DNA of 63,283 bases, the filler included, from Basidiobolus ranarum (taxonomy: Eukaryota), in assembly GCA_040143965.1 (NCBI GenBank). It is 7 parts of 7 records of this genome, joined end to end, with 100 filler letters (N's around TTAATTAATTAA, not from the genome) between each part and the next. Parts side by side here need not be neighbours in the genome. Positions count along the whole stretch, not along the records: positions 18,154 to 27,118 come from JASJQH010007769.1; 6 more parts are not named here. One strand, given 5' to 3'. The position numbers were made by a program, and so were the translations under genes. Below are positions 6,835-39,975 of the stretch, piece by piece (positions within the stretch are counted from its first letter, which is position 1; each line of letters begins with the position of its first letter). Under the pieces are notes generated by a model. It ran no database searches, was not told the origin of the DNA, and saw nothing but the letters and a program-made list of their open reading frames with translations.

Positions 6835-8278
6835 TTAAATTTGAATTTTTCTTCCTTGCACCCATATCTCTTTGATGTTACGATCATCACCGACATGAAT
6901 GAACTTCTGGAAAGCATCCTCAATGGTATCATATACGAATAACTCGATGGGATTTTCAAGGCTTTCGTTATCTTCAAAATTAGATAAATCTACTAACAGT
7001 GCGTCCAAAGATTTTCCTACTTCAAAAGAACCAACATCGTTATGAATTCCAAGGGATTCAGCGCCACCCATAGTTGCCAGCCAAAATGCCTCTTTATAGT
7101 TGAGTTGAAGAGAATTACTATCGGTAGTATCTGCAGTTTTGTCCTCCTCAAGACGAGCTACCTCTAAGAAACGAGATGTAATTACCGCTTGTCGAATCGC
7201 GGAAAGCATGGAGATGGAGTAACCACCGGCGATGTCCGTTCCAAGGCCACATTTGACTCCAGAGCGCCAGAGTTTCTTCACAGACAAAGATCCATTTCCA
7301 AAATAACTATTAGAGAGTGGGCAATGTGAGATAGCGGCACCTCGAGACTTGAGGATCTCCAAATCAGCATCTACAAGTCGAGTACCGTGAGCAAGCACTG
7401 TTCTATTGTTCAACAGCTTGTAGCTATCGAACACATCAGCATCATTCTTTCCATCATGAAGTTGGTGAACGAAGTCAACTTCAGCAATAGATTCGGAAAT
7501 ATGCGATTGTATCGGGAGATTATAACGTTCAGCGATGTCACCAAGTGCTTGAAGTAACTTGTTACTGCATGTAGGGATAAATCGAGGTGTTACTACGGGA
7601 GTAATTAATGGATTCCCTTTGCCCAAGGTAAACTCGACAAACGCTTCCACGTCACGAATGGAATTTTCAGTTTCACAAGAGTAAACTGCAGATCCATGTT
7701 GATCAAGACTAGGAATACCTACAAATCCTCGCATGCCATATTCCTCCAACAACTCCACAAAGAGCTCACTTGCTTTAAGATCAATGGTCAAAAAATAGAG
7801 TCCAGTTGTAGTACCGTTTTTTAAAGCTCGGCGAATTTGACGACTGTAGACTGCACGAGCAAAAGTCAATTCTTTAAACTTGGATTCGTAATTAAACGCG
7901 TATTTGTTCAACCAATCGAAAAGAGGAGTCTCACAGGCAGTACCGGTATATGGATATTGAGGAGCATGATGATGAGTGTCAATAAACCCTGGGATAAGGA
8001 ATTGCGTTTGATCCATCTCAATCAACTCTACGTTGCTATCTTTGATGGTATCAAGTAACTCTTTTCCTTTTTCGGAGCTAATAGGCTCGATTATTTCAAT
8101 CTTTCCATCCTGATTTACACCTTGAGAAAGAAAAACAAACGTTGGTTGTTATGTACGGTAAATAATAACTACAAAAGAACTTACCACAGATGTGGTTCTC
8201 TAAGATGTCCAGCTTATCTTTACTGGGTGCATGAATTAAGGTTCCCTTGAAGACGGTTTTTAGGTTTGTAAAGCTCAT
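6835..8278 (-). CDS. GUD1: Guanine deaminase (amidohydrolase superfamily); one intron about 8121-8184
   Basis: FLIPGFIDTHHHAPQY metal motif, PVVTPRFIPTCS, IQSHISES, LAHG, HCPLSN, GLGTDIAGG, GDDRNIKEIWVQG; exon 1 MSFTNLKTVFKGTLIHAP. Confidence 0.93.
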
Positions 8279-16485: not shown

Positions 16486-17413
16486 ATGGCCTCTTCGTTC
16501 ATATGTATATTAACACACGGAACAGATGCTCGCTTCGTATATTTATCACCCACTTTTGACCAAGTAATAGGTCATGCTGGATTGGAGCTAATTGGAAATA
16601 GTGTTGCTCTTTTGACGCCAAATTACGAAACCGTAGCCCCGATTCTAGATTGTCTCATGGAGTTACAAACCTACGGCACTATTATATACAATAACGTTAA
16701 AACAAGATCTGGATTTGTCACCTTAGAAACAGTATTTTTCTGCTGCGAGGGACTTTACGTAACCACAAACAGAACCATCAGCTCTGGTGATTTCGTTAGA
16801 AGCAACTTACTAGGTACCACTTCCTATTTTTCTTTGCCTATATTGCGCGACTAATTAAGAGGTTTAAAAGAGAGCACGTGTATGGCAGAAAATATTGTCA
16901 TGATTGACAACAAAGAAGTACGAGTAAGGGTAAGTGAGCTAATGGACATGAAAGGCGAAACCTCGTTTAACTCGATATTTTCTGTAGGGCTGTCCAGAAG
17001 TTCTCCATACCAAAGAAGAAATATTTAAGGCGCTTTCGCAAAGCACACCATCCTACCCACCAAAAAGCCCAAGAGTCTGCTTAATATTGGATCGATTTTC
17101 CGAGTTTCTGCCCATTATGTATGCCACCGAAAGTAGTGAACAGGTGCTAGGCTTCAAACCAAGTCAACTTATTGGCACCTCGTTTTATTCGTATGTTGAT
17201 CCAGATGAGCTATACGAGGTTCAAGAGGAGATGATGGATATGAAGATCGGTCAATTCAGAACACTAACCAGTCTATTTGAGTTCACATTTGTATCTCCCA
17301 ACGGGTCATTCGATGTTAAAGCAGGTTTGTGCTTCTCAAGCGACGGGATTGTAGCCGTGTTGAGTCCCATCAATCCTTTTGAATTCTTTGAGCCAGGCTT
17401 TCCGTTAATTTGA
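16486..17413 (+). CDS. Tandem PAS-domain protein (3 exons)
   Basis: PAS1 ARFVYLSPTFDQVIGHAGLELIGNS; PAS2 PRVCLILDRFSEFLPIMYATESSEQVLGFKPSQLIGTSFYSYVDPDEL...SSDGIVAVL; two GT-AG introns at about 16814-16870 and 16930-16987. Confidence 0.8.
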
Positions 17414-21008: not shown

Positions 21009-21016
21009 TATAAATA
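21009..21016 (+). promoter_or_regulatory. Candidate TATA box of the CHAP gene
   Basis: TATAAATA about 70 bp upstream of ATG 21081. Confidence 0.5.
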
Positions 21017-21080: not shown

Positions 21081-21617
21081 ATGGTCAAGCTTTCCAGTAT
21101 CTTCTCTGTTGCCGTTGCAGTTTTTCTCTCAGGTGTCAACCCCGGAATCGCCGCACCAGTAGCTAATTCTACCGTAGTTGATCTACCAACTAATCAGACA
21201 GAGAGTAATAATCAAGTCAGCAAATTCGATGCTGCTACTCAACTCTATTCCTGCTCACGACAATTCCGGTTCAACAATGGTCAATGTACGGATTGGGCCG
21301 ATGGTCGTTACTACGAGTTAACATGTTGGCATACTCAATGGTGGGGCGATGCTCGTACATGGGCTAGCAAAGCTCGACAATTTAATGGTTGGGTAGTTTC
21401 TAATAGGCCTAGGGGTCCTTCCATCATAGTAATTCAACCAGGTTATCAGGGATGTGGTGCACCAGGCCATGTCGCTGTTGTTGAGCGCATTAACAACGAT
21501 GGCAGCGTATATACTAGCAATTGGAACTATCGTTGGAATGGATATGGAGGTGTCTACACCACTTCCTATGGTAATTTCTATCCAGGAAATGGTGTTCAAT
21601 TTATTTGGCATCAATAA
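21081..21617 (+). CDS. Secreted CHAP-domain protein (putative peptidoglycan amidase/endopeptidase), intronless, 178 aa
   Basis: Hydrophobic signal peptide, then GQCTDW (catalytic Cys), WGDARTWA, GWVVSNRP, GHVAVVERINNDGSV (catalytic His) and SNWN, in canonical CHAP order and spacing. Confidence 0.9.
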   Translation: MVKLSSIFSVAVAVFLSGVNPGIAAPVANSTVVDLPTNQTESNNQVSKFDAATQLYSCSRQFRFNNGQCTDWADGRYYELTCWHTQWWGDARTWASKARQFNGWVVSNRPRGPSIIVIQPGYQGCGAPGHVAVVERINNDGSVYTSNWNYRWNGYGGVYTTSYGNFYPGNGVQFIWHQ

Positions 21618-23900
21618 GGATTCTAGCACTGGTGAACGAGACTTTATATCTGCTGAGCAATATATCGACTTTTTGAAGATTCCCCTCTCAAGTTTTAGAA
21701 ACAAATAAATATTAAAATAGTCAACATTAGTATACCACTGAATCTTGTAGTAATATTTACAAATCGACGAGTGCAAAAGTCAACGGCATTGGCTTATTAT
21801 CGTATTACTTCTTTAGAGCATTCTTTGGAAATGGCTCTGAACCTTTTGACTGCCATTCGTAGCCAAAATATCAAAGCTCCACCAGACCACCATGTAGCTA
21901 ATGGAAATATTTGCAAAGTTAACACTGAATATATATCAACTGGCATCACTTTTATCCTTTTTTCGTTCCGTCATACTTCCTTTCCAAGAGCTCAGTTTAG
22001 ATTAGGTAAAGGTGATTTAGATCAAGATCCACTTATTTTCAATCTCTAGACCCCTATTTAGGCATTATGGGTTAAAAATAGAAATAAATGATGCCATTTG
22101 TACAGACAAAAAATCCTTTTTGACACCACTCGCGATCGACGAACGGATCTGGAGGCAGTGTAATTGGATTGAAATACCTAATGTAGTATTAGATTGAACC
22201 GACACTTCTGCATCTTTCCAATAGTAGGAGACAGTAGTGTATTAGCTCGATGACTATATTCTTCCTCAAATAAACAGGGTCCTACTAATGCCATTGTATG
22301 GTTGTACACCAGGGTTGCACCAGAGATCGAACCACCAAGAGAAAATCAAGTATTTTGAGAGCACCATTTAAGCAGATATTTCTTGAATCTTTGATATCTT
22401 TGCTTTTCAGCTGGTATCTCTCTGAGACGTCCATTTGAACTTTGAGTTGAATGGACAGTGTAGCATCACGTTCACCATCTTTCTATAAAACTACAATATT
22501 GTATGATCATCTCATGTAGCAGATACAATATGCAATCATTACTGCTATTTAGTGTACGGAAATAGTAACAACTCGATTTAAGTGTTGTCAAATGAACTAA
22601 CGATTGGCATGTTTCACGATTTGTGGTAGAATTTATGGCACCGATATGGGCTCGTTATATTTCAGATTAGAGGTTGAATATTCTTATTGCTAACTAAATC
22701 ATCTTGGCAGTTTATGCATAACCCTCCATTACTGTTTACAATTATGATGTATTTCTCGACGCTTGGCAATGTACTCCACCCTTCACTTGCTGCTTTATCC
22801 ACTAAAAATTTAAAAGAGAATCCTAAAGAGTTAACTGATATGGGTAATTATATCATATGTATTTGTTGATTACAAAATAGCATTAGAACGTATAGTATTC
22901 GTCTGAAGAGATGTTTCTGAAGCGCTGATACATTATACTCATAACGTTGCTTAGTTTATCTCTTTTTTATCCGCTACCGAAGAAAATATAATCAGGTGAG
23001 TGTAGTGACAATGAGGAACCTACCATTGAATGTACAGTATGTGTAATCAAGTATGATTCTGATTCTCTACTCTTTTGGTTTGGGTGCCTTTTTGGGGTGC
23101 GAGGTGATCTGGCTTTGTGACCTGTATAATAGATTATTAACAGGAGCTTCAAGAGTGGGATTGCCAAGGCTTCTTTTGCCGAAATATGATTAATAGAACC
23201 TTTATTACTGACGCATGACTGGAAAGGTATGCTACTAAAGTAAACAGATATTTATTAGAAACGGGACATAACAAACCTAGAAGCTGGTTCTTTTCCCTAT
23301 AGGCCATCTCAACTAACTACTGTCTTCATTTGATGAAACTCTGAAATTCAATGACCCATTATATAGTGTGCGATGAAAATGAAGCAGAAATCGAGGGTAC
23401 CTAAGGTGGTTTATTCTTCGCTTCTCACCAATTGCTAGTAAATATTCTTGGTGATTTCCAAATTTGAGCTCTGCAACTGAGTAGAATATTAGAAATTTAC
23501 TACTGAGCAATATAGGGACATCAAACCTTATTCTCGAGAAATCCGGTCATAGACTTGATTGTTCGCAATCTATGACTCAAGGCATATATGCCAAATTGGA
23601 ACAATATGTTTCCGTGAGGAACTGAAGCGACGATTAAATCTGTTGTACATATCCAATCAGGCTAAATCTCGCCTTAAAAAATAGTTGTAAATGAATTTTG
23701 ATTAGGAACATTGGAATAGGAATGATAAATCTCGAATTTAGTTTGATAATTGTACTTCAAATTTATTCTCTATTTGATGACAACTTGTGTCAACCGAGAG
23801 AAGGCTAGTTTGTTATTGTTGACTATATACTGTGGTTTATAAAACCTTAGGTTACACCCTACTCCATATTTGATATATACGCGTGCTAGCGAGAATAATA

Positions 23901-26900
23901 ATGCATACTGACCGAGTAAACACAATACCTGCTACTCCCGGGCAAAGCTTAAAACCCGACAAGTTACTTGTCGACAAGAATACTGATGCCTATATGACTT
24001 CACTTCATTTGAAGCATCCTGTTCCATTCAGCGAGGTATGTACTGAGAGACCTCAAACTGTACCTCATTAACACATATAAAGTAATTCTGCTCAAATTAT
24101 TGCTCATCTTTGTACTATAAACGCGTTACATAGTTGTGCCCCAAAGGTTGTCTATTTTCACGAGTTTTTATGTTCATGTTATAATAGGTACTAATACCTT
24201 TATAATGTTACAATAGATTTCCTGGAAAGGTATAATTCTTCTCCCCCGTCCTTCATTCTTCACATTTATCCAACTTATTTCAAATTTGAGAAACAGGTAC
24301 TTGTTTTTTTATCTTGAACTTGAACTATATTCTAATGAGAGTATTTTAAAACCTCAAGGATGGTGTATTCTTGTTTACAAGTTCTACCAAGGTAAGAAAA
24401 TGTTCAAATTTCATTCTTTTCTGTTACTTACTTTATCTGTTTGTTGAAATAGAGTTTTTTGGATCATTTAAACGATTTTGAGATTCCTCCAGAATTTCTC
24501 GACATATTTGACGAAGCTCGTTGTCCCTATTACGAAGGTAACGACTTCGTATATACTCTAGTGAAAATGTCTTGAATCAAAATAGTAATAAGTATATTAT
24601 ATATAGGCTGTATAATAGCAGAGATTCATGATCATCGTCCCAATTTGCATTCAGAACAGTCCTCGGAGACGCTCACAAACATACAGCGAGTGGTGCTTCA
24701 TCCAACCTCTGAAACTTTGTGGGCTGATCTATGTTTAATGAATGAAACAAGTGATGTTTTGTGGAATGAGGATTTTTCTTTACAAGTAGAGTCCAAGATA
24801 CTGGTGAGTCTTTTCTTAGTAGAACGTTTATTTGCAACCACTGCGTACTCAGATTTGTTTAGCTTGCTACTGAAGCACCCCTGTGCTTAGATCCCTCTTT
24901 TCAGGTCACCCGTATTACTAATACCTTATGTTATGGTAAACCAGAGGCTCATCGTAGCCGTAAAAAGCCCAGAAAAAGAGTTCCCGTTGAAATAGAGACT
25001 GAAGTCGCCGAAAAAGAGGAGAATTATAAGTTGATGATGATGATGGACGAGGTATGCTGCATATAGTTTGAAATCTGAACTAATCCAAGAAACGTGTTGA
25101 CCATTTCTTTGTACAAACATGTTCAGCGTTATCAAAAGAATTTCCAACCCACGTATGTACACATCATACTTGTTCGAGCAGCAATAAGAACTAATCAAGG
25201 TGAATTCAACAGATTCAATCGGATGTCTTTTATAAAAGATTGGAGGAAAAGAAAATCTATGTTGGATGCAGAGCCATCCTCTGGTTTACAGGAGAAGCCT
25301 AAAGGTGATACTTTATTGAAGTTCAAGTAATGCATCGTATTATTAAAATATGGACTTCAAAGACAAGCGCCCTGCCCTTGGTTTGGCATCACCCATTGAT
25401 GAATACCAAGTCGTCCGAACTCTTCGATTCGAGAGAGAATGTGGTGGCAGTAAGTGGCTACTTTGGTATTCATATTTACACTAAGAAAGCTATTGACTGT
25501 TGCTTATAAGAAAAAATATACACTCTGCTCAATATCTATCACGATGCAATGACCTCCAACTATGAGGGAGTGCTCCGTACAGGCCATGCATTGGATACTA
25601 GTATTGAAGGAAACACGTTAAGGTATGTATAAGTGTATGATATCCACTACGTTGTATATTTGTTAAATAATCCAATTTAGATTTCTTATTGGCCCAAAAG
25701 ATGTTCTCGAGGAATATATAGCTAATATCAGAAAGATTTATGGTCTTGATAACACACTAATCAGCGACAACTCTCTTGATACTCACGAAACTACGCCAAT
25801 ATCTTCAATTGAGTCTGACTCCCGCCTTACTGCGTTGTCCTTGCCGCAACCACCCAACCATGCACCTTTGAGTACAAAATTAACCCAGACTATCAAGTCG
25901 TCCTCAATACAACACTCTACTCAGATACAAGCTCAACATGTGGCCAAAAAATCTGTGCCCTCGCAACCGAAGATTCAGTCAACACAAACCCCAAGACAAA
26001 TCAATACGCAGGCACCACTCCAATCTAATGATAAGTTAGCTTCTAGTTTATCTACAGCTTCTACTCATACTGGAAACATGTCTTCGCACAACGCTCAGGC
26101 TTTATCAGCCCAATCCAACATTTCCAAACTTCTTAACAGCATCAGTCTACAGCAGCTTACTCAAAATGGGAGCCCTATTGCCCCTAAAGATCTCAGTGGA
26201 TTAACGCCACAGCAAATAAATCATTTAAAGCTCCAATTGCTACGGAAAAAGCAGCTATTAATGCAGAGACAGCTAAATCAACAACAAAGTGGACCAAATC
26301 CGTCTCCGCCTCAACCAACAGCATCCATGGTAGCAGAACAAACATCAGCCTTGCAGAGTTCTCTTCAGACACCCTCACCATCGCTGGCTTCTAAAAATCC
26401 TACCTCTTTACTGCAAAGAAAAATTCTTAGACCCTCTTTATCTACTTTGCAGCCTTCATCGGCACAAGTTCGAGCAATGCTATCTCAAACACCAATTCCA
26501 TCTCAAAATCCACCAAATAAGCAACTTCCAGTAAAGGTATTTAGCTATTATAGATTTTCGTGGTGATTGAGACAATCAGATTGTACCGTTAATAACCTCC
26601 TTAACTTATTTTAGCCAACCAACCTCAATATTCCAGGACAAATTAACAATCTACCAAACGGAGGTACGTAACATTTCAAATAGCCAAGTATATTCTAAAT
26701 AAATATTAACGTCCATCCGTAGTCACACCCCAAATGCTCGCAATGGCACAACGGAGAAACCAAATACTATGGCAACAACAGCAACTGTTACAGCAATTAT
26801 CGAATGGTAGTGTTGACATGAACCAAGTAAATTTAGCAAATACTGGAATTCCCATTTCTCTTGCTATGAATATGCAAGGAAGGCCTCAACAGCTCGCCCC

Positions 26901-27118: not shown

Positions 27119-27218
27119 NNNNNNNNNNNNNNNNNNNNNNNNNNNNNNNNNNNNNNNNNNNNTTAATTAATTAANNNNNNNNNNNNNNNNNNNNNNNNNN
27201 NNNNNNNNNNNNNNNNNN
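27119..27218. other. Artificial contig linker
   Basis: N44-TTAATTAATTAA-N44. Confidence 0.98.
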
Positions 27219-28716
27219 CGAAATTAGTAACTGCTTTACAGATCAAACAAGTGAAACCAACCAAGCAAGCAGAACCTGAACCAACTAGTAGCTCAATCTG
27301 GACATTGTTAATGATGGGTGGTGGTCATTACGCCTTTGCAGTGTTTCACAATTCGCGAGGAGGTAAAGTTTTATTTCACAAGACGTTTCACAGATACACA
27401 ACCAGACGACAACAAGGTGGCAGCCAATCTAGTAATGACCAAGCAAAAGGAAAAGCTAAATCAGCCGGTGCATCAATGCGTCGTGAGAACGAAGCCAAAC
27501 TTCAACGAGATATCCGTGAATTATTAGATGAATGTAGCAGTTACATACAGCGAAGCTCACACATATATACTCATGCTTCTATTGCGAATAAGAATGTACT
27601 CTTTAATTATGAAGATGCAATTCTCAAAGCTAACGATCCAAGAGTTCGGAAATTTCCATTCAGCACACATCGACCGGTAATTGTTTAAGTTTAATCGTGT
27701 AATATATACATACTTCAGACTTACCTTGCTTTCTTTAGACATTCAACGAACTAAAGAGAGCTTATAAAGAGCTTTCAACAGTTAAGGTCGTCAATATTCC
27801 CGAAGAGATATTATCTCCCAAAGTTTCCTCACCTGTACCGCCGACATCTGATTCAAACGAGCCTGTAGAAAATGAAAACAATGACCATTTAGAGGAAACT
27901 TTAATTGAGGTCGATCCTTTACTAGATCTCAAATCCAAGGCTATTTCTTCTATTCGAAAAGGAAAACTTGCGATTTTCAAAAATTTACTAGCAAAGCATC
28001 CTGAACTAACGGTGACAGCTGATTTGTCTGCTATAGAACCAAAATACCCCACATTTCTACATTTAGCTTCTTTCGAATCTCGTTCCGACTTTATCTTCTA
28101 TTTGGTAACAAATGGCGCTAACCCTGCAACTCCTGCACTTTACGGAAAATCACCTAAAGTTCCATATGATGTTGCCAAAGACAAAAATGCCCGAAACGCT
28201 TTTCGTAGGCTAATGGCTGATTATCCAAACCAATGGGACTGGAAAGCTGCTCACGTTCCAAGCCCACTTACAAAAGAAATGCTTGAAGAACAAGAAAAAA
28301 AAGAGCACGAGCGTGAAGAAAGAAAGCGCAAAGAACTAGAAAAACAACGTCAAAAATTGGAGTCCGAAATCAAGGAAGAGAATTTGAATAAAGAAAAAGC
28401 CGCGACTTTGAAGAGTTCGAGTGCAAGTACTTCGCGGCGTTTGGATGGGAACCGTCTAAACGTTGATCAAGCAAGAAACACCATTGGAAATATGACCCCT
28501 GAGGTACGAGCACGATTAGAACGAGAACGTCGCGCAAGAGCAGCCGAGAAGCGTATGGCTTCCTTAGGATCAGCTCCACAGGCATCTACCGCTAATCCCT
28601 CGAATTCAAATGGTTGTTCCTATTGTAATGGATCTTTAGCAGGAAAAGTACCTTTCGAGGCCTTGGGTAAGAAGTTTTGTAGTACTAAATGTGTTTCCGA
28701 ATACCGTAAAAAGTAG
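27219..28716 (+). CDS. VMS1: Vms1/ANKZF1 ribosome quality-control tRNA nuclease, 5'-truncated; one visible intron about 27677-27739
   Basis: VLRF1 motif HKTFHRYTTRRQQGGSQSSND...AKSAGASMRRENE, ankyrin repeat (TFLHLAS), WDWKAAHVPSPL, coiled coil, ERERRARAAEKR and C-terminal CxxC...FCSTKC. Confidence 0.92.
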
Positions 28717-39142: not shown

Positions 39143-39975
39143 ATGGATTTTTTCAACTCGTATATCAGCAGGATAAAGAAATATGAGAGGGCTGCACTCC
39201 CTCCAATGCCGCCATACTCTCACATTTTCTCCTCGTGGGCGGCCACCTTTACTGGTATCGCCATCACCGGTTTGCTGACCTGGAACGCAAAGATCTTCAA
39301 GTCCTTTGATGGCGCCCCGGTACTCATCGGTTCATGGGGTGCTAGTTCGGTGCTGATGTACGTAGCTATGGACAGCCCGCTTGCACAGCCATACAACGCA
39401 CGTAAGAGATCAATGCTATATTGTTAGATTGTCCATACTCTTAACCTTACCTTATGCCTCCTCTAGTTGTCGGTGGAACTATCTCAGCATTTGTGGGGAT
39501 CTCAATCGGGAAGATATTTGATGCTGGTTGTTCGGAGGATATGTGCTACTTGTGGCTTCAGGCCGCGCTTGCCGTGTCACTGGCTATTGTGTGTATGATG
39601 GTAACCCGAAGTGTTCATCCACCCGGCGCTGCCACCGCTCTGATCACGATCACTGGTGGCCAGCATATTCGTAACGTCGGATACTTTTTCATCGTGTCGC
39701 CCGTCCTCTTGGGTACCGCCATCCTGATCATCGTGGCCATATTGTACGACAACGTCTTCCGAAAGTACCCAAAATACTGGATATACTCCCTGCCCAAGAG
39801 TAAAAAGGAGCTTATCTTGCCGGTGCAATTATGCAAAAAGGCTCAAGAAACTCAGATTTCAATGGCCGTAGCGCCCATTCCCGCTGTTTCTGAACTGAGT
39901 GCCCAGTTGGAAGTTGCTCAAAATAGAATCCAGGAGCTGGAAGCGAAGATCACTTCTCTACAGGGCCCTGTGTAA
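39143..39975 (+). CDS. HPP-family integral membrane protein (2 exons; intron about 39402-39466)
   Basis: LIGSWGASSVLMY...SPLAQPYN and TRSVHPPGAATALI signature motifs, several TM helices, C-terminal coiled coil; TATATAAATA at 39088. Confidence 0.9.

Follow-up and report, generated by a model that had tools for sequence, protein, structure and literature searches.

The window analysed here is a 63-kb stretch (63,283 nucleotides) of the genome of the fungus Basidiobolus ranarum, joined from seven parts, and the gene under study, which encodes the CHAP-domain protein P0001, lies on its plus strand at positions 21081–21617. The open reading frame (ORF) runs from ATG through TAA without a break, and it is the single CHAP copy that tblastn found within the window. 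In a sequence-only reading of this stretch, an intact intronless CHAP gene with a TATA box had been described; the ORF, the element TATAAATA and a Pfam CHAP match were all recovered. The motifs quoted in that reading were also located, namely IAAPVANST (residues 23–31), GQCTDW (67–72), GHVAVVE (129–135) and SNWN (146–149), and its NxT sequons correspond to N29-S-T and N38-Q-T. The coordinates of the gene, of its predicted features and of the principal neighbouring genes are collected in Table 1.

Table 1. Features of the P0001 gene and neighbouring genes in the window
Feature	Position	Strand	Remarks
Coding sequence of P0001	21081..21617	+	Intronless, 178 aa plus TAA; CHAP-domain protein, predicted to be secreted; from ORF list, translation and Pfam
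TATA-like element TATAAATA	21009..21016	+	72 nt 5' of ATG; read from the sequence; putative promoter element
Signal-peptide-like N-terminus, residues 1–24	21081..21152	+	MVK, hydrophobic core 4–19, then NPGIA; putative cleavage after A24
Low-complexity linker/pro-region, residues 25–60	21153..21260	+	Sequons N29-S-T and N38-Q-T; subclade-specific C58; AF2 pLDDT 57–69
CHAP (MEROPS C51-type) papain-like domain, residues 61–178	21261..21614	+	AF2 pLDDT, Foldseek and PDB sequence matches
Cys69 codon, predicted catalytic nucleophile (GQCTDW)	21285..21287	+	Aligned with the GQCT cysteine of 2k3a and 5t1q
His130 codon, predicted catalytic base (GHVAVVE)	21468..21470	+	Aligned with GHVAYVE and GHVAFVE of 2k3a and 5t1q
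S146-N147-W148-N149 motif	21516..21527	+	N147 at the place of the staphylococcal Glu; N149 near-invariant
AATAAA, candidate polyadenylation signal	21704..21709	+	87 nt past the stop; read from the sequence; putative function
SPT20 exon-sized ORF	24576..24890	+	Pfam Spt20_SEP, E 5.1e-11; 3 kb downstream of the CHAP gene
Guanine deaminase gene, single-exon ORF	6835..8148	-	Matches B. ranarum K7432_011484 with 100% identity across 98% of the length
Vms1-type gene over two ORFs (bVLRF1 and VATC), intron implied	27167..28716	+	Pfam 5.8e-52 and 2.8e-9

The P0001 domain and its genomic surroundings

P0001 matched the Pfam CHAP profile (PF05257) with 50.5 bits where the cut-off is 26 (E = 3e-13), which is far beyond chance, with residues 64–147 aligned to positions 6–79 of the 81 in the profile. 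The NCBIfam models for staphylococcal amidase and PcsB gave partial matches, all far under their cut-offs. A sequence search of the PDB retrieved the CHAP domains of Staphylococcus saprophyticus (2k3a, 1.8e-9) and S. aureus (5t1q, 6.4e-9) as well as that of phage phi812. An AlphaFold2 (AF2) model, for which an alignment of 128 sequences was used as input, had a mean predicted local distance difference test score (pLDDT) of 84.3, with values of 92–98 across residues 61–178, and the modelled domain shows a papain-like alpha+beta fold. Comparison of the model with the PDB using Foldseek gave 5t1q, 9euf/9eum, 2k3a, 2lrj, 4cgk (PcsB), 4olk (LysGH15) and 4csh (LysK) as the best matches; 15 matches reached E ≤ 1e-3, and the 13 of these among the matches listed were all CHAP-type.

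The predicted nucleophile, C69, lies in a helix of the model (residues 69–81) and the predicted base, H130, in a strand (130–137). Both are kept almost throughout the alignment: the cysteine in 34/35 Basidiobolus, 8/8 entomophthoralean and 189/194 bacterial rows, and the histidine in 34/35, 8/8 and 193/194, respectively. Asn149 is kept in 35/35, 8/8 and 184/194 rows, and residue 147 is Asn in 28 of the 35 Basidiobolus rows (Asp in the other 7), in 7 of the 8 entomophthoralean rows and in 141 of the 194 bacterial rows. The statement in the sequence-only reading that SNWN replaces the usual SExN holds for a comparison with staphylococcal CHAPs, whose aligned residues are SEMN or SESN, but not as a novelty. 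Asn is the commonest state at 147 in the bacterial relatives as well, so SNWN was inherited from the donor subfamily and is no fungal innovation. On the alignment, N147 and N149 are candidates for the third polar residue that would orient His130. P0001 has four cysteines in total, C58, C82 and C125 in addition to C69.

The N-terminus of the protein resembles a signal peptide. K3 is followed by a hydrophobic segment at residues 4–19, the Kyte-Doolittle hydropathy averaged over 10 residues peaks at 2.93 at residue 7, and G-I-A occupies positions -3 to -1 before A25. This layout, ending A-LP, is common to most of the paralogues, as is the hydrophobic character of the N-terminus. The N-terminal 60 residues have pLDDT values of 52–69, and the linker is disordered in the model. 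These features suggest that P0001 is secreted and that its linker is probably N-glycosylated.

Fungal genes lie on both sides of the CHAP gene in the window, several of them split by introns across ORFs. The SPT20 gene that had been placed on the contig of the CHAP gene was recovered as an Spt20_SEP match. Further ORFs of the window matched the Pfam families Peroxin-13 with SH3, SYO1 TPR, HPP and methyltransferase, and a chitin-synthase-4-like domain is divided between two ORFs. After the identical B. ranarum protein listed in Table 1, the next matches of the guanine deaminase were eukaryotic guanine deaminases with no more than 47% identity. The ORFs scanned within approximately 3 kb of the CHAP gene, upstream and downstream, gave no Pfam matches. 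The GC content of the CHAP ORF is 0.447 and that of its third codon positions (GC3) 0.346, within the GC3 range of its neighbours (0.26–0.56); for the domain-coding part of 78 Ktedonobacteria homologues, GC3 has a median of 0.59 and a range of 0.376–0.804. That a bacterial-type CHAP gene resides in a genuine fungal genome, as the sequence-only reading maintained, is borne out by the flanking intron-split fungal genes and by the neighbour with 100% identity to a B. ranarum protein.

Bacterial relatives and the fungal family

An unfiltered phmmer search of 1.84 billion representatives with P0001 gave 794 matches at E ≤ 1e-3, the best 150 of which were inspected. Among these 150, Basidiobolus proteins came first and were followed by proteins of approximately 300–390 aa with a C-terminal CHAP domain and 45–62% identity, the first bacterial match having an E-value of 5e-32 and 62% identity. 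Ten matches were looked up first; one was from B. ranarum and five were named as members of the Ktedonobacteria group (Thermogemmatispora tikiterensis, Dictyobacter vulcani, Ktedonobacteria bacterium brp13 and metagenome-assembled genomes of Ktedonobacteraceae). A scan of 185,579 prokaryotic species genomes with patterns taken from the alignment produced 426 confirmed relatives, and the best 78 of these loci were all labelled as Ktedonobacteria or Chloroflexota (Ktedonobacter, Thermogemmatispora, Dictyobacter, Thermosporothrix, Tengunoibacter, Ktedonospora, Ktedonobacterales, 'Chloroflexia' and 'Chloroflexota'); the alignment was dominated by such sequences, and the scan is therefore not independent of the phmmer search. 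With P0001 alone as the source of the pattern, the prokaryotic genomes gave 124 pattern matches, none of which was confirmed. In an even sample of 301 Chloroflexota genomes, 26 contained a match at E ≤ 1e-10 and 275 did not, and the number of CHAP matches per genome was 14 in K. racemifer and 4 in T. carboxidivorans. The highest bacterial identity to P0001 was 61–63%, in Thermogemmatispora, and no bacterial sequence exceeded 63%. A resemblance to Ktedonobacteria, which the sequence-only reading had suggested, thus agrees with both the named look-ups and the best 78 of the 426 loci. An ESM Atlas search returned generic bacterial CHAP clusters only and gave no taxonomic lead.

In the bacterial relatives, a cytoplasmic N-terminal region is followed by a single transmembrane segment, then by the conserved ATATAVTQDGYD motif and finally by the CHAP domain, and the position of the transmembrane segment upstream of CHAP indicates that the domain is extracellular in these bacteria too. 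The Ktedonobacteria proteins, uncharacterised to date (e.g. T. tikiterensis WP_112429574 and D. vulcani WP_151755742), are 50–63% identical to P0001 in the domain, carry it C-terminally as P0001 does, and share with it the motifs GQCT.WA, PSIIV.QPG, GHVAVVE, TSN.N and a C-terminal PG.GV.F.W. The last motif, together with PSIIV.QPG and TSN.N, constitutes the subfamily signature in consensuses of 35 and 128 sequences. The architecture differs: in place of the 300–390 aa of the bacterial proteins, with their cytoplasmic region, single transmembrane segment and ATATAVTQDGYD, P0001 has 178 aa with a signal-like peptide and a sequon-bearing linker, and it lacks the ATATAVTQDGYD motif. P0001 is thus derived from the membrane-anchored Ktedonobacteria subfamily without being a member of it by architecture. 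Ktedonobacteria and fungi also differ at position 71 (Y/W/F versus D/E), at position 84 (W/Y versus H) and in the extra cysteines of the P0001 subclade. The staphylococcal SsaA/Sle1-type and phage CHAPs (2k3a, 5t1q, 9eum, 4csh, 4olk, 4cgk) belong to the same Pfam family and share the fold, the aligned Cys and His and the Asn of SExN, but they are only 25–36% identical to P0001, which has Asn for the Glu of SE.N, has no SH3b, LysM or amidase partner and is found in a eukaryotic host.

Some further features of the bacterial genes were observed. Genes of the Ktedonobacteria subfamily are often arranged as tandem pairs or triplets 1–2 kb apart, as for two adjacent genes in Thermogemmatispora carboxidivorans (genome G001, contig C1, 515.9–517.8 kb), a layout that parallels the tandem arrays found in fungi. 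In the bacterial sister group, CHAP is fused to a Ser/Thr protein kinase in one protein and to an SLT lytic transglycosylase in another (P0058, P0044), P0058 grouping with locus L013 in the tree, and approximately 22 relatives on the bacterial side carry CHAP at the N-terminus.

A word-indexed protein search with P0001 gave 31 matches, all of them from Basidiobolus (B. meristosporus CBS 931.73 and B. ranarum). The top fungal match was B. meristosporus K493DRAFT_315324, which is 80% identical over the full length and is located on a 134-kb contig. In this orthologue, 112 of 118 domain positions are identical to P0001, versus 32 of 63 N-terminal positions, and this concentration of identity in the domain is the pattern expected of purifying selection on a catalytic domain. 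At least 18 members were counted in B. ranarum (at least 17 and P0001) and at least 17 distinct members in B. meristosporus, both counts being lower bounds as the source databases were clustered. The gene, described in the sequence-only reading as a candidate domesticated antibacterial effector, is accordingly one member of a family and not a single or recent import. Consecutive locus tags, such as those of K7432_005993, 005994 and 005995 on a single 19-kb contig, indicate tandem arrays. UniProt labels the family proteins automatically as 'Peptidase C51 domain-containing protein'.

Further members were found in Entomophthora muscae (at least 8 proteins), Massospora cicadina, Conidiobolus coronatus and Neoconidiobolus thromboides, on contigs of 66–370 kb, and in E. 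muscae three of the proteins have consecutive locus tags on one 260-kb contig. The earlier surmise that other zygomycetes may hold similar genes is therefore correct for these four genera. The six fungal genera with family members all belong to what we take to be one subphylum, Entomophthoromycotina.

Within the family, P0001 falls in a 'short form' subclade of 12 rows (proteins of approximately 160–220 aa; support of 95 in the 237-row tree described below), and inside it P0001 pairs with its B. meristosporus orthologue (support of 100), from which it follows that most duplications are older than the split of the two Basidiobolus species. C58, C82 and C125 are present in 12/12 rows of this subclade; outside it, C58 and C82 occur in no Basidiobolus row and C125 in one. 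The three extra cysteines pointed out in the sequence-only reading are therefore present but confined to this one subclade rather than being a general trait, and the entomophthoralean proteins have invariant cysteines of their own at other positions.

The paralogues show additional variation in domain content. In two E. muscae proteins, P0113 and P0109, the signal peptide is separated from the C-terminal CHAP domain by long tandem repeats rich in Pro and Asn (units ending ...NPNPYPNNPFLPKKP...), and the invariant cysteines of these proteins include one in I-C-T-S-N-W-N. Four Basidiobolus paralogues (P0013, P0014, P0016 and P0017) have an extra Cys-rich N-terminal module of approximately 60 aa between the signal peptide and the linker, with a shared C-P-x-G-N-G-L-Y-C start and 8–9 cysteines per whole protein; CHAP was the sole Pfam match of P0013, and the module may be a binding domain added in fungi. 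Another paralogue, P0037 (B. meristosporus K493DRAFT_299100), retains the His-bearing half of the domain but not the GQCT segment with the catalytic Cys, which would fit a pseudoenzyme, a copy in decay or an erroneous gene model.

Phylogeny and residues specific to the fungal copies

Trees were built on the CHAP domain (approximately 120 columns) from 237 non-redundant rows. In a quick maximum likelihood (ML) tree of all 237 rows, computed under LG+C20+F+G4 with posterior mean site frequencies (PMSF), 36 known fungal rows and 7 further rows were separated from 194 bacterial rows with a support of 96 in the Shimodaira-Hasegawa-like approximate likelihood ratio test (SH-aLRT); 5 of the 7 further rows were later identified as entomophthoralean fungi. 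A smaller tree of 57 rows without outgroups comprised 19 of the 35 Basidiobolus rows, 8 rows of the entomophthoralean clade and 30 bacterial representatives clustered at 58% identity. Its support values (ultrafast bootstrap, UFBoot/SH-aLRT) were 98/88 for fungal versus bacterial rows, 99/95 for Basidiobolus and 100/98 for the entomophthoralean clade. The ML phylogeny proposed in the sequence-only reading was expected to show fungal sequences nested in a bacterial clade; the fungal and bacterial rows were indeed separated, but nesting was not shown, and the position of the root shifts with the outgroup.

The entomophthoralean branches are long (0.7–1.3), and in a quick tree of 161 rows the Conidiobolus pair was drawn to the root with a support of just 17. 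An approximately unbiased (AU) test was performed on 62 rows with outgroups. Holding the 27 fungal rows together gave a log-likelihood 2.16 above that of the free search (p = 0.553), and fungal monophyly, although unproven, is at least as good as any alternative found. Since the outgroup sets disagree, no claim is made concerning the donor genus or nesting.

Two positions of the domain distinguish the fungal rows. Position 71 is Asp in 34/35 Basidiobolus and Glu in 8/8 entomophthoralean rows, and in bacteria it is Tyr, Trp or Phe in 183/194 rows and Asp in 4/194. His84 occurs in 32/35 Basidiobolus, 5/8 entomophthoralean and 0/194 bacterial rows, the bacteria having W or Y at this position. These shared states at 71 and 84, which do not depend on the tree, are in our view the strongest argument that the family goes back to a single fungal ancestor. 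Judged from the alignment, the probable fungal novelties are the acidic residue 71, His84, the cysteines of individual subclades, and a signal-like N-terminus in place of the bacterial tail, transmembrane segment and ATATAVTQDGYD.

Origin and putative function

The reading that we favour, and hold to be likely though well short of certain, is that the P0001 gene stems from an old bacterium-to-fungus transfer and now encodes a secreted peptidoglycan hydrolase of B. ranarum. The transfer predates the split of B. ranarum and B. meristosporus, and it probably predates that of Basidiobolus and Entomophthorales. The proposal that the gene was horizontally acquired and that its product is secreted to kill or digest bacteria had been made in the sequence-only reading; the bacterial affinity and the fungal context speak for acquisition, while secretion and the antibacterial role are still inferred.

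The course of events may have been as follows. The ancestor would have been a cell-wall hydrolase with an extracellular CHAP domain, anchored in the membrane of a Ktedonobacteria-like bacterium (Chloroflexota), and its gene would have entered a fungal genome long ago, most simply in the common ancestor of Basidiobolus and Entomophthorales. A signal peptide of eukaryotic type and a linker open to glycosylation would then have taken the place of the bacterial cytoplasmic tail and transmembrane anchor, codon composition would have drifted toward that of the host, and duplication, partly in tandem, would have led to the at least 18 copies of B. ranarum and at least 17 of B. meristosporus, with C58, C82 and C125 being gained in the 12-member short-form subclade that includes P0001. 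The protein itself would be a secreted CHAP-family cysteine amidase/endopeptidase in which Cys69 and His130, the latter oriented by N147 and/or N149, cleave an amide bond in bacterial peptidoglycan, which would be MurNAc-L-Ala or a peptide bond of the stem or cross-bridge. Bacteria sharing the habitats of the fungus (gut, dung, litter and cadavers) could in this way be lysed or weakened, in the service of competition, nutrition or both. Fungi have no peptidoglycan, and the conservation and multiplication of a secreted hydrolase family in such organisms points to enzymatic warfare on bacteria or to feeding on them; the size of the Basidiobolus family fits a diversification against different wall chemotypes.

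A number of observations weigh against this reading. Without outgroups, the 57-row tree is a trichotomy of Basidiobolus, Entomophthorales and bacteria, which would fit two separate acquisitions as well. The outgroup sets disagree on the root, the staphylococcal sequences joining the long entomophthoralean branches and two divergent Ktedonobacteria CHAPs attaching inside the bacterial group, so that it is biology and distribution, and not topology, that speak for nesting in Ktedonobacteria, for the donor and for the direction of transfer. Basidiobolus domains are nearer to bacterial ones (up to 61–63% identity) than to entomophthoralean ones (approximately 41%, E. muscae), and a single transfer therefore requires faster evolution in Entomophthorales. 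The acidic residue two positions past the catalytic Cys in the fungal copies, where bacteria have Tyr, Trp or Phe, could reflect a changed substrate, and the Glu of the staphylococcal Cys-His-Glu arrangement is aligned with an Asn in P0001. The signal peptide was judged by heuristics alone. Finally, no other eukaryotes were present among the named matches in a survey that was not exhaustive, being restricted to the best 150 of 794 matches and to word-based searches, which are biased.

The alternative that fares best, although we consider it rather unlikely, is repeated acquisition, in which Basidiobolus and Entomophthorales each received the gene from Ktedonobacteria-like donors or in which it passed from fungus to fungus. 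The unrooted three-way split speaks for it, as do the greater proximity of Basidiobolus domains to Thermogemmatispora than to E. muscae and the shift of the Conidiobolus pair, or of all entomophthoralean rows, away from Basidiobolus when outgroups are included. Such a displacement is, however, also what long-branch attraction would give with branches of this length, and a His84 that is found in no bacterial row and an acidic residue 71 that is common to both fungal groups speak against repeated acquisition. Fungal monophyly, moreover, was not rejected by the AU test and had the better likelihood.

Less probable still is a new use of the domain, in which the fungal CHAPs would cleave a substrate other than peptidoglycan (fungal wall or host proteins, or small thiol-amide conjugates) or would only bind. 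The CHAP family includes amidases that do not act on peptidoglycan, such as the Gsp amidase of Escherichia coli, which was itself among the weak Foldseek matches of the P0001 model; fungi have no peptidoglycan of their own to process; and all fungal copies have exchanged the aromatic residue two past the catalytic Cys for an acidic one, with W/Y84 replaced by His. Against this, the catalytic Cys and His and the groove motifs (PSIIV.QPG, GHVAVVE and TSN.N) are kept at bacterial levels, the nearest solved structures are all peptidoglycan hydrolases, and the apparent secretion into habitats rich in bacteria fits a peptidoglycan target.

Vertical descent of an ancient eukaryotic CHAP gene kept only in these fungi is very improbable: the family does occur in two deep fungal lineages and its root differs between outgroup sets, but no other eukaryote was among the named matches of the non-exhaustive survey, the closest non-fungal relatives come from one bacterial class, and a domain identity of 50–63% to Ktedonobacteria, versus 29–36% to staphylococcal CHAPs, is much too high for a split of the age of that between bacteria and eukaryotes. 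An assembly artefact, by which a bacterial contaminant (the gene is, after all, intronless) was joined to fungal sequence, is the least credible explanation, as the fungal genes on both sides in the window (the nearest, Spt20, at 3 kb) and a host-like GC3 below all but the lowest values of the Ktedonobacteria homologues make contamination or a chimeric join very unlikely, and as the N-terminus is a eukaryote-style signal peptide without bacterial tail and transmembrane segment, the 80%-identical orthologue is on a 134-kb contig of B. meristosporus, separately assembled genomes of six fungal genera contain paralogues by the dozen, and no bacterial sequence exceeds 63% identity.

Domesticated bacterial wall hydrolases are an established category in eukaryotes. 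Tick Dae2, a domesticated bacterial Tae amidase, was reportedly proven by experiment to be antibacterial by Chou et al. in 2015, and Metcalf et al. are said to have done the same in 2014 for GH25 muramidases that had crossed between domains. These cases share with P0001 the concept of a bacterial wall hydrolase that passed to a eukaryote, gained a signal peptide and was kept under selection; the enzyme families and donors are different, and for P0001 the antibacterial role is putative.

The closest parallel found in print is the oomycete Saprolegnia parasitica, an animal-associated eukaryotic osmotroph for which 7 secreted CHAP genes were described, expanded by duplication and proposed to derive from bacteria by horizontal gene transfer (HGT), without a donor being named or function being tested (PMC3681718). 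Saprolegnia belongs to another eukaryotic kingdom, and its CHAP transfer and that of Basidiobolus were presumably independent events. For Basidiobolus, the study of Tabima et al. 2020 (PMC7466969) gives amphibian and reptile guts, dung and litter as habitats and attributes 2–5% of gene content to bacterial origin, with 806 bacterial HGT candidates in B. meristosporus; such genes are mostly intronless, of host-like composition and flanked by fungal genes, a profile that the P0001 gene fits. That study relied on the best BLAST hits in each genome, entomophthoralean relatives not being considered, and its main text makes no mention of CHAP, peptidoglycan or amidase, although Tables S4 and S5 may or may not list these genes (PMC7466969). 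CHAP is likewise not mentioned in the main texts of Ciach 2024 and of the J Fungi 2022 paper on family expansion, the supplementary tables of which may list gene models. Full-text literature searches found no paper pairing 'CHAP domain' with Basidiobolus or Entomophthor*, and 'CHAP' with Conidiobolus gave an unrelated lipid paper only. The family therefore appears to be undescribed in print.

The P0001 family would accordingly represent a clear case of transfer between domains that seems not to have been published and that involves an unusual donor class; the family is strongly expanded in Basidiobolus, and the general kind is already known. It would constitute an antibacterial strategy of early-diverging fungi that is independent of secondary metabolites, and would add to the domesticated bacterial wall hydrolases an unusual donor (Ktedonobacteria) and an unusually old case that spans a subphylum. 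The more than 40 diverged CHAP enzymes, with their predicted eukaryotic adaptations (glycosylation and disulfides), form a natural panel, in which the shared fungal substitutions by the catalytic Cys suggest a change of specificity or of pH optimum after transfer. If there was one event, the shared CHAP gene would also provide a rare genomic character for the question of whether Basidiobolus and Entomophthorales are sisters.

A more far-reaching version of the favoured reading, which we put forward only tentatively and regard as doubtful, is that a single ancient transfer from a filamentous, soil-dwelling bacterium of Ktedonobacteria type founded a subphylum-wide family of secreted bacteriolytic enzymes that was re-engineered in each lineage, a fungal counterpart of tick Dae2. 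Basidiobolus and the insect-killing Entomophthorales would then have retained the family over hundreds of millions of years, and the lineage-specific changes would comprise the acidic residue by the catalytic Cys, the disulfide cysteines, the Pro/Asn-rich stalks and the Cys-rich modules. The multi-copy arsenal of Basidiobolus, a gut dweller, would target different bacterial wall chemotypes, and the enzymes of Entomophthorales would clear bacterial competitors from the cadaver or host.

Several minor observations were made on the window and on the sequences used for comparison. An ORF at 16988–17413 (+), 4 kb upstream of the CHAP gene, has a weak PAS_3 match (E = 3.5e-4) under the Pfam cut-off. 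The ORF at 39445–39975 (+), which encodes the HPP transmembrane domain (E = 4e-29), has a GC content of 0.50 and a GC3 of 0.56, both clearly higher than in the other sampled coding ORFs (GC3 of 0.26–0.40), and may be another gene with a different history. An origin of the CHAP gene from a phage endolysin was considered and rejected: the phage collection gave 6 records with 30–36% identity, all labelled as 'UNVERIFIED_ORG' Staphylococcus phage, and three of these loci were used as outgroups only. The records OR844989, OR844990 and OR844992 (loci L097–L099), 183–283 kb in length and labelled 'UNVERIFIED_ORG: Staphylococcus phage SA 1306 Kay', contain unannotated SsaA-like and amidase-linked CHAP genes, and in size and content they look more like staphylococcal chromosome contigs than phage genomes.

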